Shown: positions 12,549 through 32,755 of the stretch, piece by piece
How the letters are laid out: the number at the start of each line of letters is the position of its first letter
How positions within the stretch are numbered: position 1 is the first letter of the stretch
Assembly (NCBI GenBank): GCA_964592075.1
Contig: CAZQDY010000001.1
Coordinates: 60,399-124,398, forward strand
Source of the DNA: an uncultured Gaiellales bacterium
GTDB lineage: Bacteria > Actinomycetota > Thermoleophilia > RBG-16-64-13
Length of the DNA: 64,000 nucleotides
Direction: 5' to 3'
The notes under the pieces: generated by a model
Databases searched by the model: none
The model's input: only the letters and a program-made list of their open reading frames with translations
Told to the model about the DNA's origin: nothing
Position numbers and translations under genes: made by a program

Positions 12549-13349
12549 TCAGTTGATGCAGAGGAATCCCCCGTCGTGCGGCATCACCACTCCGTTCAGG
12601 TGCGCCCCTTCCGCTGAGGCCATGAACACGCAGAGGGCTCCGATCTCTATCGGCTCGCCATATCTCCGGTCCAGGAGGGCCCTGGCGTTCCTCTCCTTCA
12701 TCTCGGGGGTGAGCTGCTCGTCGAGTCTGGAATGCGTGGGGCCAGGCATTATGCAGTTGACGCGGATGTCGTGCTCGGCGAACTCGATGGCCCACGACTT
12801 GGTGAGATGGTTGATGGCCGCCTTGGCTGCCACATACGCGGCGTTCGGCAGCTCTCTCGACCCGGAGCAACTTGCGCCGCCCACCGACGAGATGTTGACG
12901 ACGAGCCCGCCCCGGCCGGCCGTCCGCATCTCGTTACCAACCGCGTGAGTCATGTACGCGGTCCCGTTCAGGTCCACGTCGATGACCCGGCGCCACTCCG
13001 GGAGGTCCTCGTCCATGTCCAAGAAGGGTTTGACGGCGGCTATGCCGGCGTTGTTCACGAGGACGTCGATGTGGCCGAAGGAGTCGATCACGGATCCGAC
13101 CGCCATGCGGACGGACGAGAGGCTCGTGACGTCGCACTCAACGAACAGATGAGCACCGCCGGGCCCTCGCAGCGTCTCGACAACCGCCCTGCCCCCCTCG
13201 ACGTCCATGTCGAGCACCGCCGCCTCGGCGCCCCGCTGAGCGAAGGCCTGCGCGATGCCCGCCCCGATGCCGCCGGCGCCGCCCGTCACGACCACCTTCA
13301 GTCCCGACACGTCCATCACGTTGGCGAGATCGCCCACGGGTTTGCTCAT
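12549..13349 (-). CDS. SDR family oxidoreductase
   Basis: TGGAGGIG, LVNNAG, YVAAK catalytic motif, IRVNCIMPG. Start re-chosen at ATG 13349 (MSKPVGDL...); the upstream extension in the ORF track is GC-rich and low-complexity. Confidence 0.9.
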   Translation of the reverse strand: MSKPVGDLANVMDVSGLKVVVTGGAGGIGAGIAQAFAQRGAEAAVLDMDVEGGRAVVETLRGPGGAHLFVECDVTSLSSVRMAVGSVIDSFGHIDVLVNNAGIAAVKPFLDMDEDLPEWRRVIDVDLNGTAYMTHAVGNEMRTAGRGGLVVNISSVGGASCSGSRELPNAAYVAAKAAINHLTKSWAIEFAEHDIRVNCIMPGPTHSRLDEQLTPEMKERNARALLDRRYGEPIEIGALCVFMASAEGAHLNGVVMPHDGGFLCIN

Positions 13350-13483
13350 GGGCGCGCGGGCGGAGCGCCGGCCGGGCGCGCGGCCCCCATCAGAGTCCGG
13401 CGCGGCGCGTCCGGGCGCGCCCCCATGGCAGGCCCCTACTTTTCCGCCCGCTCCTCCGCTCGCCGCTGCGCTCGCCCCTGCGC

Positions 13484-13969
13484 TCACTTCCCCGCCTGCT
13501 GTCGCGCGATCTCCTGCACGTACGCCTCACCGGGGCCGGTCGAGAAATGGAAGATGGGCCTATCCACCCGGTGGATGACGAGCGGGCAGTGATAGGCGCC
13601 CTTGGGGAGGAAGATCAGGCAGCTCTTCGTGAGGGTGAACTTCTCGTCCTCGATCCAGAACTCTATCTCGCCGTGGAGTGCGTAGGGGTCGGCGAAGTCG
13701 GTGCCGAAGAAGCCGATGGTCTCGTCGTAGTCATGGGCGTGCGAGTGGGGCTCGGCGGTCTCCGGATACACGTCGCCGCCCGCCGGCCACATCCACACGC
13801 ACTCGGTGTAGGGAGAGCCCTTGAGCACGACATCGTCCAAGCCCAGGATCTTGCGATGCGACGGGGTGTTGGTCACCGACTCGGGGTCCACGCCCGGCGG
13901 CAGAGCCGCGTCGCGGGAGTCGCGGCGGCGCTCGGTGACTATGTACTTGGCGAACTTCGATTCACTCAT
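13484..13969 (-). CDS. Uncharacterised cupin-like protein with a putative His/Glu metal site
   Basis: PHSHAHDYDETIGFFG...GEIEFWIEDEKFTLTKSCLIFLPKGAYHCP resembles the two cupin motifs. RBS AAAGGA. Confidence 0.6.
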   Translation of the reverse strand: MSESKFAKYIVTERRRDSRDAALPPGVDPESVTNTPSHRKILGLDDVVLKGSPYTECVWMWPAGGDVYPETAEPHSHAHDYDETIGFFGTDFADPYALHGEIEFWIEDEKFTLTKSCLIFLPKGAYHCPLVIHRVDRPIFHFSTGPGEAYVQEIARQQAGK

Positions 13970-13984
13970 GGATAGTCGTCCTTT

Positions 13985-15390: not shown

Positions 15391-15430
15391 CTCCTGGTCC
15401 CGTCCTTCCCTTCGTCCCGCTCCAAAGAGG

Positions 15431-16382: not shown

Positions 16383-16667
16383 CTACCAGTACCTGATCTT
16401 GCGGACCGTCATGTCCTCCTCCACCGTGATGAAGCAGGACTGGACGATCCTCCCATCCTCCAACTCCACTGCGCAGCTCCCGCAGGAACCGTAGCCCCCG
16501 CACTGGCCGGCCACAAAGTTGATGGTCTCGAGAGCGCGGAACAGCACGGTGCCGGCCGGCACCTCCAGCTTGGCCATCTCCATGCCCGTCCGGCCCAGAC
16601 AGGTTATCGTCAGCCTCCGGCCCTCGTCTCGAGGGCCGGAGGCGACTGTTTCGTTCTCGCCGGTCAC
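16383..16667 (-). CDS. 2Fe-2S ferredoxin-type protein
   Basis: CGGYGSCGSC plus a distal C (IVQSCF) in a 94-aa beta-grasp-sized protein. Confidence 0.8.
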   Translation of the reverse strand: MTGENETVASGPRDEGRRLTITCLGRTGMEMAKLEVPAGTVLFRALETINFVAGQCGGYGSCGSCAVELEDGRIVQSCFITVEEDMTVRKIRYW

Positions 16668-16680
16668 GCGACTTTGCCGA

Positions 16681-17751
16681 CTAGCGTATATACAGGTCGG
16701 GTCGGCCGTGCGCGAACATCTCGTCGACCGGCATCGGCGTCGGCAGCTTGTAGAGCTTGGCCGCGTTACCCCCGACGATGAGGTTGATCTGATCCTGGGT
16801 GGCCAGGTTGAGGTCCCTGAGGCGGTGGATCTGGTGCATCGCCCAGCCGTACCAGTCGGGGGCGTAGGGGAGCTCCCGGGGCTGGTTGTCGACCGGCCAA
16901 CAGGTGCGGTTGTAGAAGACCTGGTGCTCGTTCAGATACTTCGCCGCCGGACGCAGAGCGTGGTGCATCCAGATACGGCTGCCGGTGTCGCCGCCTCCCC
17001 AGATGAGGCGTTTGCAGGTGACGTTCTGGTCCCAGATGGCCATCTCGTAGAACTCGGCTTTCCAGTAGCCCGTCTCCAGATACACGTTGGGGAAGGAACT
17101 GGCGAACTGGATGGCTTCACGCACCTCGTTCTCTGCCTGTCCCCCGCCGTGGTTGATGAGCACCTTGAGCTCCGGATAGCTGCACAACGTCATGCCGAGC
17201 ACGTCGTAGGCCTCGCTCGGCCGGATGCCGACGGTCATGGAGCCGTAGCCGCGGTATTCGTGGAAGTGCACCACCACGTCGTGCTTGATGGCGAGTTCGG
17301 CAATGGCGGCCCATTCATAGCAGCGTTGCTCGTAGCTGGGCGGCTTGCGGATGGTGCCCATGGAGCCGGGGGCGAACTCCCCGATGCCGACGAAGACATC
17401 CGGCTCCGCCGTGATCGCCTCGTCGATCTCCTTGATGGCGTCCTCGATGGTCCACTCCTTCTCACCCCGGGCCGCCTTGATCCGCGCCGTGGTGTCCATG
17501 CAGCAGGTGCGGAAACGGTCGGGGTGCTTCTTGACCATGTCCCCATACAGCTCTTTGGTGGTACCCGTGAAGCTGGGCAGGAGGATGCCCATGTCGACTC
17601 CGTAGGCGTCCATGTCGAAGAGGGCCCAGCTGGAGCTGTCGTCCGGCACCACCTCGGCGAAAATGCCGTGCGCCGGGTTCGCATGGGGGGCGTGCGCGTC
17701 CTTCTTGCCCGAATGGATGTGGCCGTCGACGACCCATCTACCTATCTTCAT
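16681..17751 (-). CDS. Amidohydrolase family (Amidohydro_2-like) metalloprotein, paralog 1
   Basis: VVDGHIH, MDAYGVDMGILLP, VGIGEF, VHFHE, INHGG, VYLETG, IWGGGD, GGNAAKLY. Confidence 0.85.
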   Translation of the reverse strand: MKIGRWVVDGHIHSGKKDAHAPHANPAHGIFAEVVPDDSSSWALFDMDAYGVDMGILLPSFTGTTKELYGDMVKKHPDRFRTCCMDTTARIKAARGEKEWTIEDAIKEIDEAITAEPDVFVGIGEFAPGSMGTIRKPPSYEQRCYEWAAIAELAIKHDVVVHFHEYRGYGSMTVGIRPSEAYDVLGMTLCSYPELKVLINHGGGQAENEVREAIQFASSFPNVYLETGYWKAEFYEMAIWDQNVTCKRLIWGGGDTGSRIWMHHALRPAAKYLNEHQVFYNRTCWPVDNQPRELPYAPDWYGWAMHQIHRLRDLNLATQDQINLIVGGNAAKLYKLPTPMPVDEMFAHGRPDLYIR

Positions 17752-17805
17752 CGTAGTCTCCTTGCGTAGCTTGACCGCCGGCGGCGCTCGTCTGTGCGGG
17801 CGTCC

Positions 17806-18906
17806 CTAGCGTATGTACAGGTCGGGCCGGCCGTGGGCGAACATCTCGTCCTTGGGCATCGGCGTTGGCAGTTTGTAGAGCCGGGCTGCATTGCCTCCCA
17901 CGATCAGGTTGATCTGGTCCTGGGTGGCCAGGTTGAGGTCTTTGAGTCGGTGGATCTGGTGTGTCGCCCACCCGTACCAATCGGGGGCATAGGACAGCTC
18001 CTCGGGCTGGTTGTCGGCCGGCCAGCAGGTGCGGTTGAAGAGTACCTGGTGCTCGTTCAGGTACCTCGCCGCCGGACGCAGGGCGTGGTGCATCCAGATG
18101 CGGCTGCCGGTGTCGCCGCCTCCCCAGATGAGGCGTTTGCAGGTCACGTTCTGGTCCCAGATGGCCATCTCGTAATGCTCGGCCTTCCAGTAGCCGGTCT
18201 CCAGGTGCACGTTGGGGAAGGAGCTCGCGAACTGGACGGCCTCGCGTATCTCGTGCTCGAGCTGGCCGCCGCCGTGGTTGATGAGCACCTTGAGCTCCGG
18301 GTAACAGGAGCAGGTCATGCCCAAGACGTCCCAGGCGGCGCTGGGGCGAAGACCGGTGGTCATGCCGCCGTAGCCCCCGTATTCGTGGAAGTGCACCACC
18401 ACGTCGTGCTTGATGGCGAGCTCTGCGATGCCCGCCCACTCGTCCACCCGCTGCTCGTAGCTCGGCGGCTTTCGGATGGTGCCCATACAACCGGGGGCGA
18501 ACTCCCCGATGCCCACGAAGACGTCCGGTTCGGCGGTCAGCGCCTGATCGAGCTCTGCGAGGGCCGCCTCTATGGTCCACTCCTCCTCGCCGCGGGCCGC
18601 CTTTATCCGGGTGGTCGTGTCCATGACACAGGTACGGAGGCGGTCCGGATGCTTCTTGACCATGTCTCCGTACAGCTCCTTCGTGGTGCCCGTGAAGCTG
18701 GGCAGGAGGATGCCCATGTCGATGTCATAGGCGTCCATATCGAAGATCGCCAGGTCGGAGTTGTCGACCCCTTCCACCTCGCCGCCCATGAAGGTGGGGA
18801 GCCTGCGTTTACCGGCCGGTGTCTGGTCGGCGCCGACTTCCGGAGCTTTGTGGTCCTTCTTGCCGCAGTGGATGTGGCCGTCCACGACCCATCTTCCGAT
18901 CTTCAT
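17806..18906 (-). CDS. Amidohydrolase family (Amidohydro_2-like) metalloprotein, paralog 2 (tandem duplicate)
   Basis: Same motifs as paralog 1, with long near-identical protein and DNA stretches. Confidence 0.85.
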   Translation of the reverse strand: MKIGRWVVDGHIHCGKKDHKAPEVGADQTPAGKRRLPTFMGGEVEGVDNSDLAIFDMDAYDIDMGILLPSFTGTTKELYGDMVKKHPDRLRTCVMDTTTRIKAARGEEEWTIEAALAELDQALTAEPDVFVGIGEFAPGCMGTIRKPPSYEQRVDEWAGIAELAIKHDVVVHFHEYGGYGGMTTGLRPSAAWDVLGMTCSCYPELKVLINHGGGQLEHEIREAVQFASSFPNVHLETGYWKAEHYEMAIWDQNVTCKRLIWGGGDTGSRIWMHHALRPAARYLNEHQVLFNRTCWPADNQPEELSYAPDWYGWATHQIHRLKDLNLATQDQINLIVGGNAARLYKLPTPMPKDEMFAHGRPDLYIR

Positions 18907-18943
18907 CGATCTTCCTCTCTCTGGACCCGAGGCAGGCCCGCAC

Positions 18944-22469: not shown

Positions 22470-23801
22470 CTAGGCCCAACCGTACGTCTTCTTGTTGTAT
22501 TCGAAAGCCCTGTCGAGGCTGAGCTCTTCGATGACCTTCCATTCGCCCTTCTCGACGACACCCATGGTGACGGCGTAGATGCAGTCGACACACTGCGGGT
22601 TGTCAAGGTCGGGGCGAGGGATGATCTTCCCATGGCCGTCGGGGCTGTCGAATTCGAAGCCTGCGTGCATCACCTCGGCCAGTTTGGTGGCGTCGAGCGT
22701 GGCGGCCTTCTCCAGAGCCGCCTTGAGCAGCCACAGTGTCTGGCTGTGGAAGATAGCCGGGTAGTCCCACTCTCCAAACTTGGCCACGTACACGTCGTAC
22801 AGCTCTTTGGCCGCCGCCGGCGGCTTGGGCAGTTCAAACAGAGCCCAACTGGAAGCGACGTTCTCATGGTTCTCGATCGGTACGACCTTCGTTGCCGAAC
22901 CCGGCACGAAGCCCACGGTGATCCACTTGGGACCCTCGAAGCCGGCCTGTTTCATAGCCTTGAAGAACTGGCCGTCGGAGACATCGCCGCCACCGCAGGT
23001 GCTGAAGACCTCGCCGCCGGAGGCGACGAGCGTCGTCGCGATGGCGCTGAAGTCAGTCGTGCCCATCGGGTACAAGATCTCTTTAACGACCTCCTGGCCC
23101 CAGGCCTTGCAGAGCATCTCGAGCTTCCTGGACTCTTCATTGCCCTGAAGGTTGTCCGGATGTCCCCCCATGACCTTCTTGACGTCGGGCCATCGCTCGC
23201 TGCACCACCCCCATATTTGGGCAGGCTTCGTATTCAGATAGGTAGCCTGGAACGTCAGCTTGTTGATCGGCTTCAGGATCTCAGGCGACGGGCTGCCCGC
23301 GATGACCAGCTTGCCGGCCTGCTCGGTGAGCGGCTGCCAGTAGTCGGTGCTCTCATCGCCAAGGATGAACTCGACCTTGTCCTCGTTCAGGAGGCGTTGC
23401 ACGGCCGAGCGGCTCGTCTCCGAGTCCCTCTTGCCGTCGTACATGATGAGGTCGACCTCGTAGGCCTGGTCGCCCACCTTGATGCCACCGGTCGAGTTCA
23501 TGTGCGGGACGTACGCTTCCATGATGTGCTGCCACATGACGTGGAGCGGGAAGGAGTAGTCCAGGATCATGCCGACCTTGAGCTTCTGCAGGCCGGCAGC
23601 CACTGTGGTGGTGGCTCCCGCGGCCGCAGTGGTCGTGGTGGCTGTGGGCTCATCGTCCCCGCAGGCCGCGACCAGGCCGCCAAGACCGGCGCCAAGACCG
23701 ATCGCGGCTCCCGCCATACCTGCCAGCTTCAGGAACTCGCGCCGGCTTACTGACCTGCCTTGTGCCTCATCGTTGAGGCTGGTATCCGGTTTCTCGCTCA
23801 T
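22470..23801 (-). CDS. HAAT-type ABC substrate-binding protein, Tat-exported lipoprotein
   Basis: SRREFLK twin-arginine motif, hydrophobic segment, lipobox LVAAC, Thr-rich stalk, then LKVGMILD. Confidence 0.85.
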   Translation of the reverse strand: MSEKPDTSLNDEAQGRSVSRREFLKLAGMAGAAIGLGAGLGGLVAACGDDEPTATTTTAAAGATTTVAAGLQKLKVGMILDYSFPLHVMWQHIMEAYVPHMNSTGGIKVGDQAYEVDLIMYDGKRDSETSRSAVQRLLNEDKVEFILGDESTDYWQPLTEQAGKLVIAGSPSPEILKPINKLTFQATYLNTKPAQIWGWCSERWPDVKKVMGGHPDNLQGNEESRKLEMLCKAWGQEVVKEILYPMGTTDFSAIATTLVASGGEVFSTCGGGDVSDGQFFKAMKQAGFEGPKWITVGFVPGSATKVVPIENHENVASSWALFELPKPPAAAKELYDVYVAKFGEWDYPAIFHSQTLWLLKAALEKAATLDATKLAEVMHAGFEFDSPDGHGKIIPRPDLDNPQCVDCIYAVTMGVVEKGEWKVIEELSLDRAFEYNKKTYGWA

Positions 23802-23899: not shown

Positions 23900-25006
23900 C
23901 TACCCCTTCCTGTACCTGGGCGGGATCCAGGTGTCGGTCTTGTCGGACTCGGGGACCGAATCCATCCAATTGATACCCCATACGTCGGGCCTTCCGCTCA
24001 TGAACATCCGGTCGTGAGGGACGGGCAGATCCCAGAGCCGGACCGCGTTCCCTCCCAGGATCAGGTTGATCTCGTCCTGGGTCAGGTAGTCACGCAGCTT
24101 GTCGATCTGATGCAGCTCCCAGCCCCACCAGTCCGCCTGGTACGTCGGCACCTTCGGCCAGTGATGCATGGCGGTGGTGAAGGTGGGCGGGTCGGCGCCC
24201 GGGTTCATGACTATGTATTGCGGGACATGCCCGTAGTCGGCGCCCCAGATGAGCTGGCTGATCAGGATGTTCGGGTCCTTGAGCGCGTAGAGGTAGTACT
24301 GCCAAGGCCAGTTGCCCGTCTCCAGATAGATGTTCTTGCCGGAACAGGCGGCCAGTGCTCTGCGTATGACGGCAGCACCCTGAGTATACGAGCCGATCGA
24401 GTAGCCGCCGTGACAAAGAACGATCGGCACCTCGGGGTACTCTCTGGCTATGCGGGCGAGAAGAGCATAGGGATCCCACTCGTACGCCATGGTGAAGTCG
24501 TGGAAGTCAACCGTGACGCCGTACTTCTCTGCCAACTCCATGAAGGTCCGGTATTCGTTCAACCTCTCCTCGAACGTGTAGATCTTCTTGGGGTCCCAGT
24601 CCTGAGGGACGAACTCGCCGATGCCGATGAACATGCCGGTCTTGAGCGCGTTCTCCACTTCCTGCGCCGCATCGTCGAGCGACCACTTGGCTTCGCCACG
24701 GGCGATCTTGAGCTTGCACGTCTGGTCGGCGCAGAAGGCCCGGAACTTGTCAGGGTACTTCCGCACCAGATCAGCCTGGTACTCATTGGTCGTGCCCTGC
24801 ATGCTCGGTTTGAGCAGGCACATATCGACGCCGTAGCGTTCCATGTCGTAGAGGCACAGGGGCGAGTTGTCGTAATGGATCACCTCCCCCGCGTCCGGTG
24901 TCATCGGCAGGCCGTTCCAATCGTCTCCGGCATCGCCTTTGGGTTTGTAAAGGGTGGTGATATGGGCGTGGGTCTCGACCACGAACCGGCCGGCGGCTCT
25001 CATCAT
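23900..25006 (-). CDS. Amidohydrolase family (Amidohydro_2-like) metalloprotein, paralog 3
   Basis: Start re-chosen at ATG 25006 (RBS GAAGGAGG). VVETHAH, MERYGVDMCLL, IGIGEF, DFHD, LCHGG, IYLETG, IWGADYG, GGNAVRLW. Confidence 0.85.
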   Translation of the reverse strand: MMRAAGRFVVETHAHITTLYKPKGDAGDDWNGLPMTPDAGEVIHYDNSPLCLYDMERYGVDMCLLKPSMQGTTNEYQADLVRKYPDKFRAFCADQTCKLKIARGEAKWSLDDAAQEVENALKTGMFIGIGEFVPQDWDPKKIYTFEERLNEYRTFMELAEKYGVTVDFHDFTMAYEWDPYALLARIAREYPEVPIVLCHGGYSIGSYTQGAAVIRRALAACSGKNIYLETGNWPWQYYLYALKDPNILISQLIWGADYGHVPQYIVMNPGADPPTFTTAMHHWPKVPTYQADWWGWELHQIDKLRDYLTQDEINLILGGNAVRLWDLPVPHDRMFMSGRPDVWGINWMDSVPESDKTDTWIPPRYRKG

Positions 25007-25089
25007 TCCTGTCCTCCTTCCCAGACCTCGCGACGTGCCCGGATCTCTCCTTCGCGCCGCTCGCTCCGGCGATAGTGAGACTCGCCACC

Positions 25090-25156
25090 GTTGCGAAATG
25101 CGCAACAGCATGCTTGACTGGTGATACCATAACTTCGAGCCTCACCCGGAGTCAAG
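25090..25156 (-). promoter_or_regulatory. Leftward promoter and palindromic operator candidate in the IclR divergent region
   Basis: Minus strand TTGACT (25155-25150), 18 bp, TATGGT (25131-25126). Palindrome GTTGCG-AAATG-CGCAAC at 25090-25106. CTTGACT/AGTCAAG inverted pair at 25113-25119 and 25150-25156. Confidence 0.55.
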
Positions 25157-25216
25157 AGGCGCGTGATACCGTCGAGCGCGAAGCACTCCCATCAAGAAAG
25201 GGCGACCAAGGACAAG

Positions 25217-26047
25217 ATGGCCGAGACCATGGACGACGCACAGCAGGGCGGCGGCAGAGGCCCCCAGTTGGTACAGTCGCTGTCGCGGGGATTGGGCATT
25301 CTCAGCCAGTTCACCGCGGAATCGCGCAGTCTCAGCCTTGCCGACCTCAGCCGCCGGACCGGTCTTCACAGGGCCACGGTCTACCGCTTCGCCCGGACCC
25401 TCGAGACGGAGGGCTTCTTGACGTACGATCCCGATTCCGGACTCTACAGCGTCGGTCCCGCCTGGGCCGCGGCGCTGTACTCGCTGGGCACCGATACGGT
25501 CTTGGCCGAGATCCTCAACGACGACATGCACGCGCTTTCGGAGGCCGTCGGCGAGACCGTGACGCTCGCCGTGCGCCGGGGGGATCACGTACAGATCATC
25601 GCCATCACCCATTCCTCGCGCGTCTTCCGGCCGCGACTGCCCAGCAGCTCGCTCGTGGCCTTGAACGAGTTCTGGAACGTACACGCGAAGATCCACCTCG
25701 CCTACGCGAGCGACGACACGAGGCGCCGCATGCTTGCCATTCCGGCCACGCGGTACACCGAGAACACGATGACCGACCGGAAGGCTATCGCGGCCTGCCT
25801 GGCCAAGGTGGTGGAAGAAGGTGCGGCATACGACCTCGAGGAGCAGCAGAAGGGCGTGTGTGCCATCGCCGTGCCGGTCTTCGAGCGCGGGGATGTGGCG
25901 CTCGCTCTCGGGGTGGTCGTCCCGGTGGAACGCTTCGCCGAGGCCGACGTGGAACGGCTGCGGCGGGAACTGACCACTGTGGCCGGCTTGATGGGGGCCC
26001 GACTCGAGAAGGCGGCCTACGCCTGGAGAGAAGCCCTCGTCACGTAG
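25217..26047 (+). CDS. IclR family transcriptional regulator
   Basis: VQSLSRGLGIL...LSLADLSRRTGLHRATVYRF HTH and effector domain (YTENT, YDLEEQQKGVCAIAVPV). Start ambiguous (25163 GTG or 25217 ATG). Confidence 0.9.
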   Translation: MAETMDDAQQGGGRGPQLVQSLSRGLGILSQFTAESRSLSLADLSRRTGLHRATVYRFARTLETEGFLTYDPDSGLYSVGPAWAAALYSLGTDTVLAEILNDDMHALSEAVGETVTLAVRRGDHVQIIAITHSSRVFRPRLPSSSLVALNEFWNVHAKIHLAYASDDTRRRMLAIPATRYTENTMTDRKAIAACLAKVVEEGAAYDLEEQQKGVCAIAVPVFERGDVALALGVVVPVERFAEADVERLRRELTTVAGLMGARLEKAAYAWREALVT

Positions 26048-26058: not shown

Positions 26059-28050
26059 TTGCCACCGCCCGGAATAACCGAGACTGATCCGCGGCCCTGG
26101 CCCTACCCTATCGAGTACGGGCAGGAGACCAGAGCCGAGTACGACGTGCTGGTGATCGGAGGTGGTGTCGCAGGCTGCCATGCGGCGATCAACGCGGCCC
26201 GGAGGGGAGCGCGCGTCGCGATCCTGGACAAGGGCGCCATCATCCGCAGCGGGTCAGGAGGGGCGGGTGTGGATCACTGGCACGCGGCCTGCCTCAACCC
26301 CTGCAGCCGGGTAACGCCCGACGACTTGGTGGAGTACGTGCACAAGTCGCCCTTCCGGCAGACCACCGAATACGGCAACGCCATCACCAGCTACATCCTG
26401 GGGCGTGAGAGCTACGACACCCTGCTCGACCTGGAACAGATGGGCGTAACGGTGAGAGACGTCGAGGACGACTTCGTGGGCTCCGACTTCCGGGACGAGG
26501 AGACCAAGCTGCTTTTCGCCTACGACTACGAAGGGCGGCACTGCATCCGCGTGCAGGGTTGGGGCGTCAAGCCGGCCCTGCATCGGGAGCTCAAGCGGCT
26601 GAAGGTGGATGTCTACGACCGGCTCATGGGGACGAGCCTGCTGACCGAGGACGGGGCGCAAGGCGCGCGCGTGACCGGCGCGACGGCGCTAAACATCCGC
26701 ACGGGGCGGTTCTACACCTTCCTCGCGAGGTCCACCGTGCTGGCCACGGCCCGTCCGTTCCGCCTGTGGGTCTTCTCCACGGAGCTGCAGGGTCTGGCCT
26801 CCAGCTTCTTCGACCCCAACTGCGCCGGCGACGGCTGCGCGATGGCCTGGAGGGCCGGCGCCGAGCTGACGCTCCTGGAGCAGAGCTTCCCCTTCAGCGG
26901 CACCTTCCGCCACGTCCCGTACGGCACCGGCAACGCGCACAACTCCTGGTACGCCTGCAACATCGTCGATAACAGAGGGCGAGAAGTCCCCTGGGTCGAC
27001 CGCGACGGCAGACCCCTCCACACGCTGGCGGAGCGCTACCGGCCCGCCCCCGGCCAGAGGTTCTTCCTGTCCTGCCCGGACGTCCCCCGCGACTACCAGG
27101 GGCCGGGGCTCATCCCCGACCTCCCCCAGCGCATCCGCGACGGGGAGTTCGAGCTGCCCCTCTACGCCGACCTCCCCAGCATGCCCCCCGACGAACGAAG
27201 GGCTCTCTTCGGGCTCATGATCGGCCACGAAGGCAATACCAGGATCCCCATCTACGCCGCGTACACCCAGGCGGGGTTCGACCCCGACAAGGACATGCTG
27301 CAGGCCAACGTGCTGCCGCCCGACGCGTACAGGTTCGGCGCTTGGTGGGCGGCCGTGCCTCCGCCTCAGTGGCGAGAGGTGGGCAAGCTGGTGCAGGGAG
27401 GCGGTCTGGTGTTCGACTGGGATCTGAGGACCACGCTCCCCGGGCTCTACGCCGCCGGCGAGCAACTCGCCTGCGGCGGCAACCACGCGGCCTCGGCCAC
27501 AACCGGCCGCTATGCAGGCCGGAAGGCGGCGGAGCACGCGTGGCAGGCGCCCCCGCCTCGTGTGAGTGAAGCTCAGGTGGAGGCCGAGAAACGTCGGGTC
27601 TACGCACCGGCTGCCCGGCACAGCGGGTTCGGCTGGAAAGAAGTGCAGGCCGGCCTCTCCCGGGTCATGCAGGACTACTGCGGTGAGTACAGGAGCCGGC
27701 AGACCTTGGAACGTGGTCTGCAATGGCTCGAGAGCATCGAAGAGAGCGAACTGGCCTCGATCCATGCCCGGAACCCCCACGAGCTGATGCGTTCGCTGGA
27801 GGTGGGCGTGCGGCTGGAGGTGGGACGCGCGATGATGCACGCCTCTCTGGCGCGCAGAGCGAGCAGCGAGGCCCTGGGCTTCAAACGCATCGACTACCCC
27901 GAGTGCGATCCTCCCGAGTGGGACAAGCTGGTGACCATCAGGCTGGAGGCAGCCGAGGTGGTCGCCGGAGAGCTCCCCTGCGACTACCCGGAGCTCCCCC
28001 CGTATGCTCCGGACTGCGAGACCAACTACCGGCTCCACTCCGGGCTGTGA
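26059..28050 (+). CDS. FAD-dependent oxidoreductase, adenylylsulfate reductase alpha (AprA)-like / SdhA-FrdA superfamily
   Basis: TTG start at 26059 after GGAGGAG. DVLVIGGGVAG FAD loop, DKGAIIRSGSGG, GDGCAMAWRAGAEL, TTLPGLYAAGE, ASLARRAS C-terminal domain. Lacks the canonical AprA RSGAVAQGL (from memory). Confidence 0.8.
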   Translation: MPPPGITETDPRPWPYPIEYGQETRAEYDVLVIGGGVAGCHAAINAARRGARVAILDKGAIIRSGSGGAGVDHWHAACLNPCSRVTPDDLVEYVHKSPFRQTTEYGNAITSYILGRESYDTLLDLEQMGVTVRDVEDDFVGSDFRDEETKLLFAYDYEGRHCIRVQGWGVKPALHRELKRLKVDVYDRLMGTSLLTEDGAQGARVTGATALNIRTGRFYTFLARSTVLATARPFRLWVFSTELQGLASSFFDPNCAGDGCAMAWRAGAELTLLEQSFPFSGTFRHVPYGTGNAHNSWYACNIVDNRGREVPWVDRDGRPLHTLAERYRPAPGQRFFLSCPDVPRDYQGPGLIPDLPQRIRDGEFELPLYADLPSMPPDERRALFGLMIGHEGNTRIPIYAAYTQAGFDPDKDMLQANVLPPDAYRFGAWWAAVPPPQWREVGKLVQGGGLVFDWDLRTTLPGLYAAGEQLACGGNHAASATTGRYAGRKAAEHAWQAPPPRVSEAQVEAEKRRVYAPAARHSGFGWKEVQAGLSRVMQDYCGEYRSRQTLERGLQWLESIEESELASIHARNPHELMRSLEVGVRLEVGRAMMHASLARRASSEALGFKRIDYPECDPPEWDKLVTIRLEAAEVVAGELPCDYPELPPYAPDCETNYRLHSGL

Positions 28051-28403
28051 AAGGGAGAGCGCTTGTGGAAGCCTGGATGGCAAGCAACCCCGAGACGCCG
28101 TGCCGAGCGGTCCTCATAGACCCGGCAGTGTGCATCGGCTGTAACACATGCGTCGAAGTGTGCAGGTCGGACGTCATGGTGCCTAGCGCGCTGGAAGGCG
28201 GACCGCCGGTAGTCCTCTACCCCGACGAGTGCTGGTTCTGCGGTTGCTGCGTCGGTCACTGCCCGACCCCGGGGGCGATCTCCATGAACCACCCGCTGAA
28301 CCAGCGCGCCGCGTGGAAGCGCAAAGAGACCGGCGAGTTCTTCCGCATCGGCATGAAGAACCCGCCTCCGCCCAATCTCCGGCCGCCCGTTGGCGGATGG
28401 TGA
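28047..28403 (+). CDS. 2x[4Fe-4S] ferredoxin, AprB-like
   Basis: CIGCNTCVEVC and PDECWFCGCCVGHCP. GTGA overlap with the flavoprotein stop; alternative starts at 28065 and 28077. Confidence 0.85.
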   Translation: MKGRALVEAWMASNPETPCRAVLIDPAVCIGCNTCVEVCRSDVMVPSALEGGPPVVLYPDECWFCGCCVGHCPTPGAISMNHPLNQRAAWKRKETGEFFRIGMKNPPPPNLRPPVGGW

Positions 28404-28472
28404 ACGGCCCGGAAGGAGCAGCGCCCTCGACGGGCGCACGCCTCGATGAACCACAGCCAAGGAGGCTCCCAT

Positions 28473-28835
28473 ATGGCAGGCAAGCTCTGTAGGGTGACAA
28501 GAGACAGCGCCTGGTTGACGGAAATCCCCAATCATGAGGGGTACCGGCTCACTCCCATGGTCAATCCCAAGTTGTGCCCTGGAGCCCAGATAGAGTTCTA
28601 TGTGGGGGAGTTCCAACCCGAGGTGGGACGCGCCATAGGCCACGTGCATGCTGAAGAGGACCACGTGTTCTACGTGCTCTCGGGGCGGGCGACGGCCAAA
28701 GTGGGTGACGAGGTGCACGAACTGGAGCCCGGCGACGCCCTGTGGGTCCCGAAAGGCGAGATCCACGACTTCGATGTGGTGGGAGGAGAGACCTTCCGGG
28801 TCATCGCCATCTTCGCACCGCCGAGGACTACGTGA
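28473..28835 (+). CDS. Cupin domain protein
   Basis: HVHAEEDHVFYVLSGRA and GDALWVPKGEIHDF. RBS GGAGG before ATG 28473. Confidence 0.88.
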   Translation: MAGKLCRVTRDSAWLTEIPNHEGYRLTPMVNPKLCPGAQIEFYVGEFQPEVGRAIGHVHAEEDHVFYVLSGRATAKVGDEVHELEPGDALWVPKGEIHDFDVVGGETFRVIAIFAPPRTT

Positions 28836-28889
28836 ACCCGGCGTCGCCCGAGCGCCCACGCGCCGGCCGGTCTTCTTGAAGGAGATGAT

Positions 28890-31532
28890 GTGGAGCGACC
28901 TCTCGAGAAGCCTGTAGAAAGGTCGGGTGAACGCACGATCGTCCGTGACATGGCGTTCCTTGGCGCTCCCTGGGGCGCCAATGCCTGCATGATCGACGTG
29001 AAGGATGGCAGGATCCTCCGCATCCGCCCGGCCCGCTACTACGACGAGTACACCAAGGAGCAGGTGGGGCCCTGGGTGATGCATGCCCGGGGCAAGACTT
29101 TCGAACCCAGCGAGAAGACTCTGCCGCCCCCGCTCAGCCTGGCCTACAAGAAGCGGGTCTACTCACCGGCCCGTATCCGCTACCCCATGAAGCGGGTGGA
29201 CTTCGACGCGAGCGGGGCCCCAGGCTCTACGGGCCCCGGTGGCCGCAACATCCACAACCGGGGCGTGAGCAAGTACGAACGCATCAGCTGGGACGAGGCC
29301 CTCGACATCGTCACGGGCGAGATGCTCCGGGTCAAGCAGACCTACGGCCCCACGGCCATCCTCTACCAGAACGACCAGCACGGCGAGAGCAAGGTGGTGC
29401 ACGGCCCGCACGGATGCGGCCGCAAGCTGCTCCGTCTCTTCGGCGGGTACACGCACCAGGTGCGCAACGCCGACAGTTGGGAGGGGTGGTGGTGGGGCGC
29501 CAAACACGCGTGGGGCTGCGAGTACCTGGGCCAGCAGAAGCCCCAGAGCAACCTGCTGTGGGACATCGCCAAGAATGCGGAGCTTCTGCTCTTCTGGGGA
29601 TGCGACCAGGAGACCACCACCTGGGGTTGGGGTGGGCAACTCCCCAGCCGCCTCAGCTACTGGTGGACGGAGCTCGGCATCAAGCAGGTCTACATCGCGC
29701 CCGACCTGAACTACGCCGCTGCGGTCCACGCCGACCGGTGGATCCCTATACTGCCCAACACCGACGCCGCTCTCTATCTGGCCATCGCCTATCACTGGTT
29801 CAAGAACGGCACCTACGACAAGGAGTACCTCGAGACTCACGCCTACGGCGTCGACGAGTTCGAAGCGTACGTGATGGGCGGCGAGAACGGAGTCGCCAAG
29901 AGCCCCGAGTGGGCCGCGCCTATCACCGGGGTACCGGCCCGCGTCATCAAGGCCTTGGCCGAGGAGTGGGCTACGAAGCGCACGACCGTGGTCATCGGCA
30001 ACGGAGGCCCGGGCATCCGCGGCCCCTACGCCACCGAACCCGCCCGGCTGCAGGTGCTGTGCTTGGCCATGCAGGGCTTGGGCAGACCGGGCTGCAACCA
30101 GGCCAAGATGATCGAGTGGGCTCTTTTCGGCAAGCCTGACAACCAGGCGGCGCCCAAGCCCGCGGTGTCTCTCAACCTGTCGGCGGCCTACCGGGGCGAC
30201 CTGCCTCCGGAATACAAGCGCGAGTCGTGCATCCCCAAGACCCTGGTGCCGCAGCTCATCCTGGACGGCGAAGGCACCTGGTACGGGAACCGCCTGGGCG
30301 CGCACAGCAACCGCGAAGACCAGTTCGTCAAGTATGAGTACCCGGCGGAGGGCGCGTCGAGGATCCACATGATCTGGACCGACTCCCCCTCATGGATCAC
30401 CTGCTGGAACGACGGCAACAACTTCATCCGGGCCATGCGCCACCCCGACATCGAGTTCATCTTCTGCCAGCACCCCTGGATCGAGAACGAGGCCCTCTTC
30501 GCCGACGTCGTCCTGCCTGTCAACACCAAACTCGAAGAGGACGACATCGGTAGCGACGTGTTCAGCGGTCAGCTCGACCTGCTCTACCCGCAACCGCGCT
30601 GCATCGAGCCGTTGGGGGAGTCGTTCAGCGACTATGAGGTCGTCTGCATGATCGCCGAGCGCCTCGGCCTGCTGGAGGAATACACGGACGGAATGACGGT
30701 GGAGGAGATCATCCGGTCGGGCTATGAGAGCTCGGGGGCGGCCGACAAGATCTCCTGGGAGGAACTGAACAACAAGGGCTACTACGTCATCCCGCCTGAC
30801 CCCGATTGGGAGAAGATCCCGGCCGGGCTCATCGGGTTCTATGAGGATCCCGAGAGCCATCCCCTCTCCACTCCCAGCGGCAGAGTGGAGTTCCGCTCCA
30901 TCGGGCTTGCGGAGCACTTCCCCGACGACCCGGAACGGCCGCCGGTACCCAAGTGGATCCAGCAGGGAGAGTCGCACGAGGAGACGCTCGGCACGGAGAG
31001 GAGCAAGAAGTATCCGCTCCTTGTCATGAGCAACCACCCCCGTTGGGGAGTGCATTCTCAGCACGACGACGTGACCTGGCTGCGCGAGATAGAGACCTGC
31101 AAGGTCCGGGCCTCTGACGGCTATCAGTATCAACCACTGTGGATGAACCCGGCGGATGCCGCCACCAGGGGCATCGAGCACGGGGATGTGGTCCGCATCT
31201 ACAACGAGCGGGGCACGGTCCTGGCCGGCGCCTACGTCACCGAACGGATCATCCCCGGGGCTGTGGGCATCGACCACGGCGCCAAGTACGACCCCATCGT
31301 GCCCGGCGAGATAGACCGGGGCGGGGTGATCAACACCATCGTGCCTCGCAACTGCACATCGAAGAACACCGTGGGAATGGCGGTCTCGGGTTTCCTTGTG
31401 GAAGTGGAGAAGGCCGACCTCGACGAGCTGCGGCGCAAGTACCCGGAACCGTTCGCAAGACAGTGTCACGTAGCGGCCGGCCCCTGCGTGGCCGGAGTAA
31501 CGGAAAACAAACACGGAGGCTTAGTCACATGA
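28890..31532 (+). CDS. Molybdopterin (Mo/W-bisPGD, DMSO reductase superfamily) oxidoreductase, pyrogallol hydroxytransferase large-subunit-like
   Basis: VKDGRILRIRP, ARGKTFEP, RIRYPMKR, YERISWDEA, DSWEGWWWG (Ser Mo ligand), NTDAAL, FADVVLP, SNHPRWGVHSQ, C-terminal molydop-binding domain. No Tat signal and no N-terminal Fe-S cysteines. Confidence 0.85.
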   Translation: MERPLEKPVERSGERTIVRDMAFLGAPWGANACMIDVKDGRILRIRPARYYDEYTKEQVGPWVMHARGKTFEPSEKTLPPPLSLAYKKRVYSPARIRYPMKRVDFDASGAPGSTGPGGRNIHNRGVSKYERISWDEALDIVTGEMLRVKQTYGPTAILYQNDQHGESKVVHGPHGCGRKLLRLFGGYTHQVRNADSWEGWWWGAKHAWGCEYLGQQKPQSNLLWDIAKNAELLLFWGCDQETTTWGWGGQLPSRLSYWWTELGIKQVYIAPDLNYAAAVHADRWIPILPNTDAALYLAIAYHWFKNGTYDKEYLETHAYGVDEFEAYVMGGENGVAKSPEWAAPITGVPARVIKALAEEWATKRTTVVIGNGGPGIRGPYATEPARLQVLCLAMQGLGRPGCNQAKMIEWALFGKPDNQAAPKPAVSLNLSAAYRGDLPPEYKRESCIPKTLVPQLILDGEGTWYGNRLGAHSNREDQFVKYEYPAEGASRIHMIWTDSPSWITCWNDGNNFIRAMRHPDIEFIFCQHPWIENEALFADVVLPVNTKLEEDDIGSDVFSGQLDLLYPQPRCIEPLGESFSDYEVVCMIAERLGLLEEYTDGMTVEEIIRSGYESSGAADKISWEELNNKGYYVIPPDPDWEKIPAGLIGFYEDPESHPLSTPSGRVEFRSIGLAEHFPDDPERPPVPKWIQQGESHEETLGTERSKKYPLLVMSNHPRWGVHSQHDDVTWLREIETCKVRASDGYQYQPLWMNPADAATRGIEHGDVVRIYNERGTVLAGAYVTERIIPGAVGIDHGAKYDPIVPGEIDRGGVINTIVPRNCTSKNTVGMAVSGFLVEVEKADLDELRRKYPEPFARQCHVAAGPCVAGVTENKHGGLVT

Positions 31533-32755
31533 GAAGGAACATCGCCAGATTCGTCGTCGACACGCATTGTCACATCACGACGCTCTACCAACCCGCCACG
31601 GACGAAGGCTGGGAACAGGTCGAAAGACAGGAATGGAACGGTCTGATGGACGAGGTCGCCCCGTTCGACAACTGCTTTCTCACCCTGTACGACATGGACC
31701 GCTACGGCGTGGACATGGCCGTCCTCCTGCCCAGCATCTTCGGGACTCTCAACGAGACTCAGGCCAAGCTGGTCAAGCGTTTCCCCGACCGGTTCAGGGC
31801 GTGCTGCTCCGACCAGAAGACCGTCCTCGCCGCCATCCGGGGCGAGAAGCCGTGGAGCTTCAAGGCGGCGCTGGAAGAGGTGGAGGAGGCCCTCAAGACA
31901 GGCTGGTTCGTGGGTATCGGCGAGTTCGCGCCGGGAGCCTACGCTCGGAGCCGCCAGCTTCCCGGGGCCGAAGGCAAGGTCAGCCTCGAACAGCGGGTGG
32001 ACGAATGGGCCGCGCTGTGCGAGCTCGGTGTCAAGTACGACGTGCCCGTCCTCTGCCACGACCAGTTCTGCCTCCCCCGCGAAGGCGATTGGACCCTCAC
32101 CCAGTTGCTCGCCAAGGTGTCGGAGATGAACCCCAAGGCCAAGATCATGCAGACGCACGGTTGCGTGGAGGACGAGTGGAAACGCGGCGAGGACGCCATA
32201 CGCGAGATGTATGAGGTGGTGGCCACTCTCGACAACGTGTACATGGAGACCGGGGGCTGGAGCGAGCGGCAGTTCGAGATCGCCTTCGAGGTCGGTGTGA
32301 GCGCCAGCCGTCTAACCTGGGGGCATGACTACGGAAACGTGCCGCAACACATAGTGCGGCGGGGTGTGGAGAGATGGGGCAAGAAGCCGAAGGAGCTCGA
32401 GTACCGCAACACAATGTCGCTCATGATGTTCGGATATAGGGACTGGCCCTCCGTGCCCACCTATCAGCCCGATTTCTACGGATGGGGGCTACGGACCATA
32501 GACAGAGTCGGCGACTGGCTGACGCAGGACGAGATCAACCTCATCCTCGGCGGAACGGCCGCCAAGCTCTACAAGCTCCCGGTGCCCTACCCCAGGATGT
32601 TCCCCGAGGGCCGGCCCGACATCTTCGGCGAGAAGTGGAGAGAGAGCATCCCGTTCATCCCGCGGGAGCAGATCAAGTACCCCGACCCCGAGGGCCTGCG
32701 CATGTCGAACGAGCCCTGCATGAAGCTCATACGGAAGACCGGCCCGGAGAAGTAG
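31529..32755 (+). CDS. Amidohydrolase family (Amidohydro_2-like) metalloprotein, paralog 4
   Basis: Start ATG 31529 (ATGA overlap with the Mo-enzyme stop). VVDTHCH, MDRYGVDMAVLLP, VGIGEF, LCHD, QTHG, VYMETG, TWGHDYG, GGTAAKLYKLP. Confidence 0.85.
   Translation: MRRNIARFVVDTHCHITTLYQPATDEGWEQVERQEWNGLMDEVAPFDNCFLTLYDMDRYGVDMAVLLPSIFGTLNETQAKLVKRFPDRFRACCSDQKTVLAAIRGEKPWSFKAALEEVEEALKTGWFVGIGEFAPGAYARSRQLPGAEGKVSLEQRVDEWAALCELGVKYDVPVLCHDQFCLPREGDWTLTQLLAKVSEMNPKAKIMQTHGCVEDEWKRGEDAIREMYEVVATLDNVYMETGGWSERQFEIAFEVGVSASRLTWGHDYGNVPQHIVRRGVERWGKKPKELEYRNTMSLMMFGYRDWPSVPTYQPDFYGWGLRTIDRVGDWLTQDEINLILGGTAAKLYKLPVPYPRMFPEGRPDIFGEKWRESIPFIPREQIKYPDPEGLRMSNEPCMKLIRKTGPEK

Follow-up and report, generated by a model that had tools for sequence, protein, structure and literature searches.

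A conserved IclR-centred gene unit with a transhydroxylase-like molybdenum enzyme, an AprAB-like pair and amidohydrolases: a candidate for anaerobic aromatic metabolism

A group of genes at positions 16383-32755 of a 64,000-nucleotide stretch of DNA (hereafter the window), from contig CAZQDY010000001.1 of an uncultured Gaiellales bacterium (GCA_964592075.1), was compared with related loci. Two divergent arms on either side of an IclR-family regulator gene encode a transhydroxylase-like molybdenum (Mo) enzyme, a flavoprotein and a ferredoxin resembling the AprA and AprB subunits of adenosine 5'-phosphosulfate (APS) reductase, an ATP-binding cassette (ABC) importer and a distinct clade of amidohydrolases. 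This IclR-centred unit was conserved elsewhere, and no curated family, solved structure or paper covering it was found; a literature search on this combination of genes, on reductases of resorcinol or hydroxyhydroquinone, and on AprA-like proteins from contexts other than sulfur metabolism returned no description. The first-pass annotation of the window had proposed an undescribed pathway for the anaerobic degradation of aromatic compounds. The chemistry is indeed undescribed and conserved, and is probably anaerobic and aromatic, while the specific steps assigned to it over-reached and the boundaries of the cluster had to be corrected. We estimate a probability of about 0.5 that 16383-32755 is a self-contained, IclR-regulated catabolic island, which takes up and pre-processes a phenolic compound and delivers the product to ring cleavage encoded elsewhere. 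The host would be an anaerobic, Thermoleophilia-like actinobacterium of anaerobic digesters.

The IclR-centred unit and its recurrence

The window has a G+C content of ~65%. Genes were selected by third-position GC content and frame with the aid of open reading frame (ORF) lists, and domains were assigned by Pfam, which agreed with every domain named in the first-pass annotation for 12549-32755 (the bicupin is treated below). In the NCBIfam scan, which took in all of the 20 proteins but the four ABC ATPases and permeases (16 proteins), no specific functional model reached its cutoff; the models that did were a generic short-chain dehydrogenase/reductase (SDR) subfamily and the twin-arginine signal domain. 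A scan of the whole window with Rfam detected no riboswitch and no other RNA family. The features of the unit are as follows.

16383..16667, minus strand: small [2Fe-2S]-type ferredoxin, 94 aa, last gene of the left arm (Pfam Fer2/Fer2_4)
16681..17751, minus strand: amidohydrolase 1 (amido1), 356 aa (Pfam Amidohydro_2, 49 bits)
17806..18906, minus strand: amidohydrolase 2 (amido2), 366 aa (Pfam Amidohydro_2)
18944-19651 and 19641-20417, minus strand: two ABC ATPases of LivF/LivG type (Pfam ABC_tran and BCA_ABC_TP_C)
20414-21493 and 21486-22376, minus strand: two permeases of branched-chain/HAAT type (Pfam BPD_transp_2)
22470..23801, minus strand: substrate-binding lipoprotein with a twin-arginine signal (Pfam Peripla_BP_6 and TAT_signal)
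23900..25009, minus strand: amidohydrolase 3 (amido3), ~369 aa, ORF to 25111, likely start ~25009 (Pfam Amidohydro_2)
25010..25216, no strand: divergent control region, 207 bp (comparison across loci)
25217..26047, plus strand: IclR-family regulator (Pfam HTH_IclR and IclR_C)
26059..28050, plus strand: AprA-like flavin adenine dinucleotide (FAD) flavoprotein, 663 aa, TTG start after GGAGGAG (Pfam FAD_binding_2 and Succ_DH_flav_C)
28047..28403, plus strand: AprB-like 2x[4Fe-4S] ferredoxin with a conserved C-terminal tail (Pfam Fer4 families)
28446..28835, plus strand: single-domain metal cupin, 129 aa (Pfam Cupin_2, 54 bits)
28890..31532, plus strand: cytoplasmic Mo-bis(pyranopterin guanine dinucleotide) (Mo-bisPGD) enzyme, 880 aa (Pfam AhtL-like_1st, PF21423; Molybdopterin, PF00384; Molydop_binding, PF01568)
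31529..32755, plus strand: amidohydrolase 4 (amido4), 408 aa (Pfam Amidohydro_2)

The list follows the layout of the unit, the left arm (ferredoxin to amido3) diverging from the right arm (IclR to amido4). Translational coupling and short spacers were found within each arm. The GTGA overlap of the aprA-like and aprB-like genes (28047-28050) and the ATGA overlap of the Mo gene and amido4 (31529-31532) noted in the first-pass annotation are real, and the start and stop codons of the permease genes also overlap. The iclR gene likely starts at the ATG at 25217; for amido3, alignment with amido4 and a ribosome-binding site (GGAGGA) before MMRAAGRFVVETHAH point to the ATG at ~25009 and not to 25111. 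The right end of the unit is marked by a convergent purL gene, and on the left a gap of 166 bp lies between the ferredoxin gene and a separate module at 12549-16216. The 20-kb span previously taken as a single cluster is two units, not one; the unit around IclR is real, and the left 3.7 kb belongs to a different conserved module.

Two sets of loci were compared, 79 from a GTDB scan with the Mo enzyme and 80 from a metagenome scan with the AprA-like protein. The same architecture, an ABC importer and an amidohydrolase divergent from IclR, AprA-like, AprB-like and cupin genes, was found in four loci (L008, L042, L094 and L095). All four carry, at the same positions, IclR homologues of 58-77% identity, syntenic ABC ATPases of 73-87% identity, syntenic permeases, and cupin homologues of 65-91% identity at the place between the aprB-like and Mo genes; amido3 homologues of 82-84% identity occupy the same position in L008, L094 and L095. 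The Mo gene follows the cupin gene in L008, L042 and L095 and is absent from L094, and amido4 comes after the Mo gene in L042. Another locus, L017, contains the same genes in a different order. In L001/L009, L006, L102 and L104, amido4 adjoins the AprAB-like genes, with the Mo gene present in all except L102; amido4 homologues of 80-85% identity adjoin the Mo gene in L001, L006, L017, L042 and L104. The gene set thus recurs in at least nine loci with conserved or rearranged order. Around the clade of Mo enzymes that contains the window protein (clade D, described below), the AprA-like gene was present in 7 of 21 loci compared with 1 of 60 loci of the other clades, and the amidohydrolase family in 6 of 21 compared with 0 of 60 (Fisher p ~2e-4 for each, from partly related genomes and short contigs). 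The search for co-occurrence of the Mo enzyme, the AprA-like protein and the amidohydrolase clade in GTDB and metagenomes therefore found the set in independent loci, indicating that the unit is more than a chance assembly. The closest genome loci were from metagenome-assembled genomes (MAGs) bearing digester-type isolate codes (AS10tlH2TH_230 and AnMBR.bin25), and an identical amido4 gene was present in four other metagenome samples.

A sister genome, represented by L004 (GCA_001577815.1, LSQX01287733), L005 and L007, has backbone proteins 82-96% identical to those of the window. DNA comparison found in L004 (9575-12818) only 175 bp of iclR, 217 bp of the cupin gene, and the first 37 nt together with 106 bp near the 3' end of amido4, and these deletion scars flank an intact Mo gene. 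The ancestral state at this site therefore included the unit, which has since decayed in the sister lineage. L004 was also considered as a functional link between the Mo gene and the SDR, SnoaL and bicupin genes, which was rejected because the apparent junction consists of the scars of iclR, cupin and amido4. Further absences in the sister genome are the 312-aa SDR, purL at this site and the segment of the window at 40.5-58 kb; comparison of the two shows repeated gene loss or gain between close relatives.

The control region between the arms contains a palindrome, GTTGCGAAATGCGCAAC, at 25090-25106 (consensus GT(T/C)GC-N7-GC(A/G)AC), which was spotted by eye and by comparison across loci. When the diverged amido3-iclR spacers of the window, L008, L042 and L095 were compared, three blocks were invariant, namely the palindrome, a TTGAnTGGTGATAC..TAA block and AAGTCAA; a conserved TTGACTGGTGATACCATAA block lies within 25010..25216. 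The palindrome was thus kept in three of the four loci of the same architecture. A promoter-like site for the left arm, TTGACT-18-TATGGT, is located on the minus strand at 25155..25126; the TTGAnTGGTGATAC..TAA and AAGTCAA blocks overlap this site, and the palindrome is just downstream of it. An inverted-repeat tool found nothing in the control region, and terminator and promoter scans were not above shuffled expectation. The conservation of an operator and a promoter block in the region separating the arms agrees with the co-regulation assumed in the first-pass annotation, as evidence for common control of both arms and not as proof. The heptamer GTGATAC occurs at 25120-25127 and at ~25166 in the control region, and again at 23834-23841 in the 98-bp gap upstream of the binding-protein gene, and may be a second regulatory site. 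The best NCBIfam match of the regulator itself was PcaR/PcaU/PobR (TIGR02431), with 116.6 bits below the cutoff of 284.75.

The molybdenum enzyme and its gene context

The best solved relative of the Mo enzyme was the large subunit of pyrogallol hydroxytransferase (4v4c_A; E 1.7e-134, 453 bits), compared with E 1.3e-72 and 248 bits for dimethyl sulfoxide (DMSO) reductase. The protein is ~36% identical to AthL and has neither a twin-arginine translocation (Tat) signal nor an N-terminal Cys cluster. A tree of 118 homologues from the loci and the window protein was divided into four clades. Clade A is 34-41% identical to the window protein and includes proteins 77-81% identical to Pelobacter AthL. 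After most members of clades B (61-72%) and C (73-77%) comes a BthL-like beta gene, which never follows a member of clade D (at least 77%), the clade of the window protein. A homologue of the BthL-type beta subunit (Fer4_11 and CarboxypepD_reg-like domains) was found neither in the 64-kb window nor after any clade D member.

All 119 aligned homologues, one gapped clade-A sequence excepted, share His144, Asp174 and Ser175 with the window protein, and Trp176 is also kept across all clades. Arg153, Trp354, Tyr404 and Tyr560 are kept in clade A only, the window protein having Pro, Gly, a gap and a gap (Gln in the pairwise alignment), respectively. Messerschmidt et al. 2004 reportedly identified Ser175 as the Mo ligand, His144 and Asp174 as residues close to Mo, and Arg153, Trp354, Tyr404 and Tyr560 as residues of the substrate or co-substrate pocket. 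The Mo enzyme is thus a member of an uncharacterised sister family of transhydroxylase, with a different second pocket and without a beta subunit.

The gene context ties this sister family to trihydroxybenzene metabolism. Loci of clades A to C carry genes for IclR, SDR, Cyclase-family, 3HCDH and BKACE proteins, the sister clades there being 67-77% identical to the window enzyme and accompanied by BthL-like beta subunits, and the true AthL orthologues (77-81%) are located in these same phloroglucinol-type loci. The four families SDR, Cyclase, 3HCDH and BKACE were shown to degrade phloroglucinol in Clostridium scatologenes (PMC10470551). No homologue of DPGC, TfD or TAL was detected in the 64-kb window, where only generic SDR matches of 30-31% identity were found. 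Elsewhere in the MAGs, the module was accompanied by such clusters: the MAG of L042 has the intact module and a separate phloroglucinol cluster, L076, with the full set (SDR, Cyclase, 3HCDH and BKACE), that of L008 has the intact module and a partial cluster, L065 (AthL-like copies, IclR and Cyclase), and the sister-genome MAG with the decayed module has the full set in L082 with L007. Because ring-cleavage genes are absent from the window and the phloroglucinol cluster is located elsewhere in the MAGs, the unit looks like a peripheral, feeding pathway and not a complete one.

Several of the loci contain arrays of transhydroxylase-like genes. L025 has five within 23 kb, three of the five with a beta subunit, and L056, L039 and L082 have three each, every copy with its own beta subunit and with phloroglucinol genes alongside. 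The arrays in Actinomycetota MAGs consist of an AthL orthologue and one or two members of the uncharacterised sister family, an arrangement which recalls the multi-step hydroxyl shuffling proposed for hydroxyhydroquinone fermentation. Many Mo genes of the beta-less clade are accompanied by a gene for a nitroreductase-family flavoprotein, which is located directly downstream in L012, L013, L019, L020, L021 and L001, and a few genes away in L006 and L018, with a two-component system nearby in L018 and L021.

The AprAB-like pair and the amidohydrolases

The best solved relatives of the AprA-like flavoprotein were alpha subunits of 3'-phosphoadenosine 5'-phosphosulfate (PAPS) and APS reductases (8a8o, 5.5e-33; 1jnr, 3e-24). 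The alignment with these structures covers only residues 28-277 (FAD domain) and 449-631 (C-terminal helical domain), and the ~170 residues at 278-448 have no counterpart in either 1jnr or 8a8o. Arg265 of AprA aligns with Ser, in a part of the alignment of low confidence. The scores for the aprA model (TIGR02061, 103.5 bits) and the aprB model (TIGR02060, 19.2 bits) were far below the cutoffs of 641.75 and 135.65. The AprA-like family had 212 representatives at E<=1e-30 among 1.84 billion; past approximately the best fifty rows, most full-length matches were shorter proteins that align in two stretches only.

Within the 80 metagenome loci, an aprB-like gene follows the aprA-like gene in 42, many loci being cut. 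The steadiest neighbours of the pair are the amidohydrolase family (13 loci) and HAAT-type ABC importers (8-12). Also recurrent are Mo-bisPGD enzymes (9; among them clade D enzymes, clade A enzymes accompanied by beta, and Fe4S4-containing types), the aldehyde:ferredoxin oxidoreductase family (8), URO-D-like proteins (6), and ferredoxins of the Rieske or small type. Fusion of the AprB-like protein to a GltD-like Fer4_20/Pyr_redox_2 module was seen in five loci. Such a GltD/dihydropyrimidine dehydrogenase (DPD)-type module is inserted in the AprB-like ferredoxin at 8114-9943 of L112 and in four similar loci, as in L006 at 18562-20226, and this suggests NAD(P)H as the electron source or sink for some AprAB-like enzymes. 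In the window itself, the small ferredoxin gene begins 13 bp after amido1; a 49%-identical homologue adjoins an amido1 homologue in L100, and a Rieske ferredoxin is at the equivalent place in L098/L103. The full FAD domain, the private 170-residue region, the steady neighbours, the fused redox module and the nearby ferredoxins lead us to describe the AprAB-like pair, from sequence, as a putative autonomous catalytic Fe-S flavoenzyme with its own organic substrate and electron supply, and not a mere wire.

A different role had been suggested in the first-pass annotation, namely that the AprAB-like pair replaces the missing beta subunit. In a widened form of this idea, the Mo enzyme would be a true oxidoreductase, either a water-dependent ring hydroxylase of the resorcinol hydroxylase kind or a reductive dehydroxylase, with the pair as its dedicated soluble electron module in place of a BthL-type beta subunit. 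Electrons would move between the Mo centre and FAD, which would exchange them with a pyridine nucleotide or hand them on to a second organic substrate. The enrichment of the AprA-like gene beside clade D, the constant lack of a beta gene in this clade, a Mo subunit without an Fe-S cluster of its own, and the occurrence of AprAB-like genes beside other kinds of Mo-bisPGD enzymes (L119 and L170 with the Fe4S4 domain, L147 and L157) speak for such a partnership. However, 14 of the 21 clade D loci have neither beta nor AprAB, several of them having a nitroreductase-family gene instead, and the majority of the AprA-like loci have no Mo gene. In addition, L094 has the whole module without a Mo gene, whereas in L120/L121 the AprAB-like pairs adjoin a transhydroxylase homologue that has its own beta subunit. 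The large private substrate region of the AprA-like protein and the NAD(P)H module of some AprB-like proteins also count against it, as does the fact that the classical transhydroxylase reaction needs no external electrons. The redox partnership was therefore regarded as rather unlikely, although part of the evidence stands for it.

The four amidohydrolases form two pairs, amido1 and amido2 being 81% identical, amido3 and amido4 44%, and members of different pairs 36-38%. Amido2 is a recent tandem duplicate of amido1, homologues of which (74-76%) occur in L094/L100. All four paralogues matched Pfam Amidohydro_2 at 36.9-51.7 bits compared with the gathering score of 26.4. A sequence search of the PDB with amido1, amido3 and amido4 gave no match at E<=0.01 for amido3 and amido4, and for amido1 only a spurious sterol-carrier match. 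The AlphaFold2 model of amido4 is a TIM barrel with a mean predicted local distance difference test (pLDDT) score of 93.6, and its Foldseek matches reached a query-normalised TM-score of at most 0.47 with E ~1e-6 and 12-15% identity. The matches were a COG3618 lactonase, ACMSD, an uncharacterised Amidohydrolase 2 protein, diiron oxygenases and dihydroorotase; transfer of function from them was dropped because they are remote and mutually inconsistent. At the strand ends, H13, H15, E132, H177, H210 and E240 are invariant and D267 is near-invariant, the presence of E132, H210 and E240 being as in binuclear hydrolases, and in this alignment and model the set HxH/Glu/His/His/Asp looks more like that of metal hydrolases than of ACMSD decarboxylases. 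The assignment of these proteins as decarboxylases or hydratases of a known type was weakened by the absence of meaningful PDB sequence matches for the three proteins searched, by the low TM-score and by the hydrolase-like residue set.

Distant homologues of amido4 are located in other settings: in Vibrio sp. RC27 next to MarR and a TAXI-type tripartite ATP-independent periplasmic (TRAP) transporter, and in a Clostridiales MAG next to DctPQM and another kind of Mo enzyme. These neighbours point to a carboxylate-bearing substrate and to a partnership with a Mo enzyme. In the Vibrio locus (L086, 10001-11206) the homologue is 70% identical and flanked by MarR and a fused TAXI-TRAP transporter, and this strain, if available, would be a tractable route to the substrate of the amidohydrolase family.

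Proposed function, alternatives and known systems

In the catabolic island proposed here, IclR would bind the conserved palindrome and free the two arms in the presence of the substrate or an intermediate. The compound would be imported by the HAAT-type ABC importer with its Tat-exported lipoprotein receptor, a function supported at the domain level; the binding protein has an SRREFLK twin-arginine motif and an LVAAC lipobox, in line with the Tat-lipoprotein importer of the first-pass annotation. The following steps are listed in no particular order. The four metal-dependent amidohydrolase-fold enzymes would catalyse a hydrolysis (of an ester, a lactone, or a ring C-C or C-N bond) and, less likely, a decarboxylation. 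The cytoplasmic, Ser-ligated Mo-bisPGD enzyme, which by family membership has the Ser/His/Asp core of transhydroxylase, may add, remove or move a ring hydroxyl group. The AprAB-like pair would act as an independent two-electron oxidoreductase, in which electrons may flow from the small ferredoxin (or from NAD(P)H in the relatives with the GltD-like fusion) through the two [4Fe-4S] clusters of the AprB-like protein to the FAD of the AprA-like protein. The FAD site might reduce an organic substrate, plausibly an activated ring or enone, which an amidohydrolase would then open, a sequence of "reduce then hydrolyse". As a tentative proposal, phenolic rings could be opened or trimmed by the AprAB-like and TatD/Amidohydro_2-like enzymes in a new way that needs neither oxygen nor CoA thioesters nor an SDR-type phloroglucinol reductase, with the beta-less Mo subfamily setting the hydroxylation pattern. 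If true, anaerobes would have one more strategy for degrading aromatic compounds, carried by uncultured Actinomycetota and Chloroflexota that are abundant in digesters, sediments and wetlands.

The most likely substrate is a polyhydroxylated benzenoid, or else the corresponding carboxylic acid or ester. A phenolic substrate seems probable because of the family context of the Mo enzyme, the URO-D-like neighbours, and the MarR and IclR regulators; the URO-D-like family includes the O-demethylase methyltransferases of anaerobes. A compound of some other kind has a limited chance, and an N-heterocycle or ureide a rather small one.

Several observations weigh against the island as a phenolic pathway. 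The loci behind the co-occurrence statistics are from related MAGs, which are not fully independent, and from short contigs. In L001/L006 the Mo, amido4 and AprAB genes are beside ABC exporters, MBL-fold and nitroreductase genes with no importer, so that the surroundings of the set are not in every case clearly catabolic. The nearest solved relatives of the binding protein are urea-binding and not aromatic-acid-binding proteins (5e-14, compared with 6e-4 for the aromatic-acid binder 4ey3), and the best NCBIfam match of the cupin, below its cutoff, is ureidoglycine aminohydrolase; both are weak pointers to a nitrogen-rich substrate. Lactonases, ACMSD, dihydroorotase and diiron oxygenases are all comparably poor matches to the amidohydrolase model, and no enzyme of the unit has a characterised close relative, so that catalytic assignments are at the superfamily level only. 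Regarding the ligand of the binding protein, the solved relatives were too distant to choose among an amide, urea or an aromatic acid.

Another explanation is the catabolism of an N-heterocycle or ureide by Mo-dependent hydroxylation, ring reduction by the Fe-S flavoprotein and ring opening by an amidohydrolase. This three-enzyme logic resembles the nicotinate pathway of Eubacterium barkeri and the pair of DPD and dihydropyrimidinase. It would account for four amidohydrolases with the HxH/Glu/His/His/Asp set as in cyclic amidohydrolases, with dihydroorotase among the structural matches, as well as for a urea-like binding protein and a cupin weakly resembling ureidoglycine aminohydrolase. Nevertheless, we consider it improbable, as the Mo enzyme is of the DMSO reductase/transhydroxylase type and not of the xanthine dehydrogenase type, and its sister clades are found in phloroglucinol clusters. 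The urea and ureide similarities are far under the family cutoffs, and the unit contains no urease, carbamate, allophanate or aminotransferase gene.

It is very improbable that the unit is a fortuitous mosaic of neighbours without a common pathway. The original 20-kb span did join two unrelated modules, the region is patchy when compared with the sister genome, and the contexts of the Mo clade are varied; but synteny largely refuted this explanation, with the gene set in at least nine loci in conserved and rearranged order, together with the translational coupling in each arm, the conserved operator and the significant enrichment. Sulfur metabolism, with a true APS, PAPS or sulfite reductase and a Mo reductase of sulfoxide or N-oxide type, is hardly conceivable, for although PAPS and APS reductases are the solved proteins nearest to the flavoprotein and the source annotations name the Mo enzyme a trimethylamine N-oxide (TMAO) or S/N-oxide reductase, the aprA and aprB scores are 103 bits against 642 and 19 against 136, the substrate region is unalignable with Ser for Arg265, the Mo enzyme scores 453 bits to transhydroxylase against 248 to DMSO/TMAO reductases, and no sat, qmo, dsr or sulfate-transport gene was found among the window genes scanned with Pfam.

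The part within 12549-16216 of the module to the left of the proposed catabolic island comprises the following genes.

12549-13487, minus strand: SDR, 312 aa (Pfam)
13484-13969, minus strand: weak cupin, 161 aa (Pfam)
13985-14926, minus strand: bicupin, 313 aa (no Pfam match; structure model)
14923-15390, minus strand: SnoaL, 155 aa (Pfam)
15431-16216, minus strand: SDR (SDR261), 261 aa (Pfam)

In locus L174, a 73%-identical homologue of the 313-aa protein is accompanied by the cupin, the two SDRs and SnoaL; after them come ADH_zinc, an HpcH aldolase, IclR and PrpD, and the locus has neither the Mo enzyme nor AprAB. The corresponding partners in the window are on the left (PrpD at 1953-3389, a second IclR, a second ABC importer, ADH_zinc and TetR), so that 12549-16216 is the right end of a separate module. 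This module spans 1953-16216, with PrpD, IclR, a HAAT importer, ADH_zinc, TetR with a flavodoxin-like domain, and the five genes above. The ring reduction and cleavage steps that had been proposed fall away accordingly, as the SDR, SnoaL, bicupin, cupin and SDR genes are outside the unit. SDR261 was rejected as a phloroglucinol reductase, being a generic SDR of the other module, 30% identical to the SDRs of phloroglucinol clusters. The label of bicupin was supported by the model of the 313-aa protein (pLDDT 90.9), with Foldseek matches to oxalate decarboxylase, MncA and quercetinase, although the gene belongs to the other module. The family has 375 relatives, all annotated as hypothetical and without Pfam match, with invariant His/Glu/His/His in the C-terminal barrel only.

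An HpcH/HpaI aldolase gene is present in L004 (2607-4053) and L174 and mostly deleted in the window (9161-9876), where a 147-aa ORF at 9419-9862 without a Pfam match is its remnant. At 50435-51427, the window encodes a 330-aa regulator with an N-terminal MerR helix-turn-helix and TetR_N in one protein. The sister genome has no counterpart of the segment 40572-58037, which encodes a class-III aminotransferase, a galactarate/altronate dehydratase-like pair split into SAF and GD_AH, the third HAAT importer of the window, an EamA exporter, a chemoreceptor, a TRAP system of DctPQM type and a Usp protein.

In anoxic soils, sediments, guts and digesters a large pool of carbon is bound in polyphenols and in aromatics derived from lignin, and to our knowledge only a few oxygen-independent routes for such compounds have been described at the gene level. 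The module joins three families without a characterised member, namely the widespread transhydroxylase sister, the APS reductase-like flavoenzyme with its own substrate domain and the structurally remote amidohydrolases, in one regulated unit with its own importer, which makes it directly testable. Solving it would assign thousands of genes labelled "TMAO reductase", "fumarate reductase flavoprotein" or "hypothetical amidohydrolase", would improve the annotation of polyphenol metabolism in metagenomes, and might reveal a new dearomatising or dehydroxylating flavoenzyme.

The components of the unit were finally compared with known systems. The regulator shares HTH_IclR and IclR_C with the PcaR/PcaU/PobR regulators of aromatic catabolism but misses the cutoff of this subfamily. 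The amidohydrolases share with the group of ACMSD, gamma-resorcylate decarboxylase, LigW and LigI an Amidohydro_2 match above the cutoff and a TIM-barrel model with HxH, His and Asp at the strand ends. They differ from this group in the extra invariant Glu132 (IGEF, TatD-like) and His210, which suggest a different, possibly binuclear metal site, and in length, amido4 being ~40-100 residues longer than most solved matches with a conserved C-terminal extension. Like APS reductase and the PAPS reductase of Methanothermococcus thermolithotrophicus (1jnr and 8a8o), the AprAB-like pair consists of an FAD flavoprotein of the fumarate reductase fold and a 2x[4Fe-4S] ferredoxin with a C-terminal tail, encoded by adjacent, translationally coupled genes. 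In contrast to these enzymes, the pair is far below the family cutoffs, its central 170 residues are unalignable, Arg265 is not conserved, and amidohydrolases, ABC importers and Mo enzymes are the steady neighbours in place of a sulfur-metabolism context. The nicotinate fermentation of E. barkeri and the pyrimidine pathway of DPD and dihydropyrimidinase share the logic of a Mo enzyme, an Fe-S flavoprotein reductase fed by ferredoxin or NAD(P)H and an amidohydrolase ring opener, and the DPD-type Fer4_20/Pyr_redox_2 module is fused to the AprB-like protein in some relatives; all three enzyme families are nevertheless of other lineages, making this an analogy of mechanism and not homology.

The closest likeness in the Mo enzyme is to AthL/BthL of Pelobacter acidigallici (4v4c), with a three-domain Mo-bisPGD large subunit of equal length, the AhtL-like first domain, the residues Ser175, His144, Asp174 and Trp176, and the absence of an Fe-S cluster and a Tat signal in the large subunit. 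The window enzyme is, however, not orthologous (~36%), the AthL orthologues (77-81%) in related MAGs forming another clade; it lacks Arg153, Trp354, Tyr404 and Tyr560, and in place of a beta subunit it has the AprAB-like pair and amidohydrolases as partners. In the phloroglucinol cluster of C. scatologenes (PGR, DPGC, TfD and TAL; PMC10470551), the four families are those with which the sister clades are located together with IclR. The window differs in the absence of DPGC, TfD and TAL, and its two nearby SDRs, 30-31% identical, are part of the other module. The IclR-centred unit probably feeds this phloroglucinol pathway.

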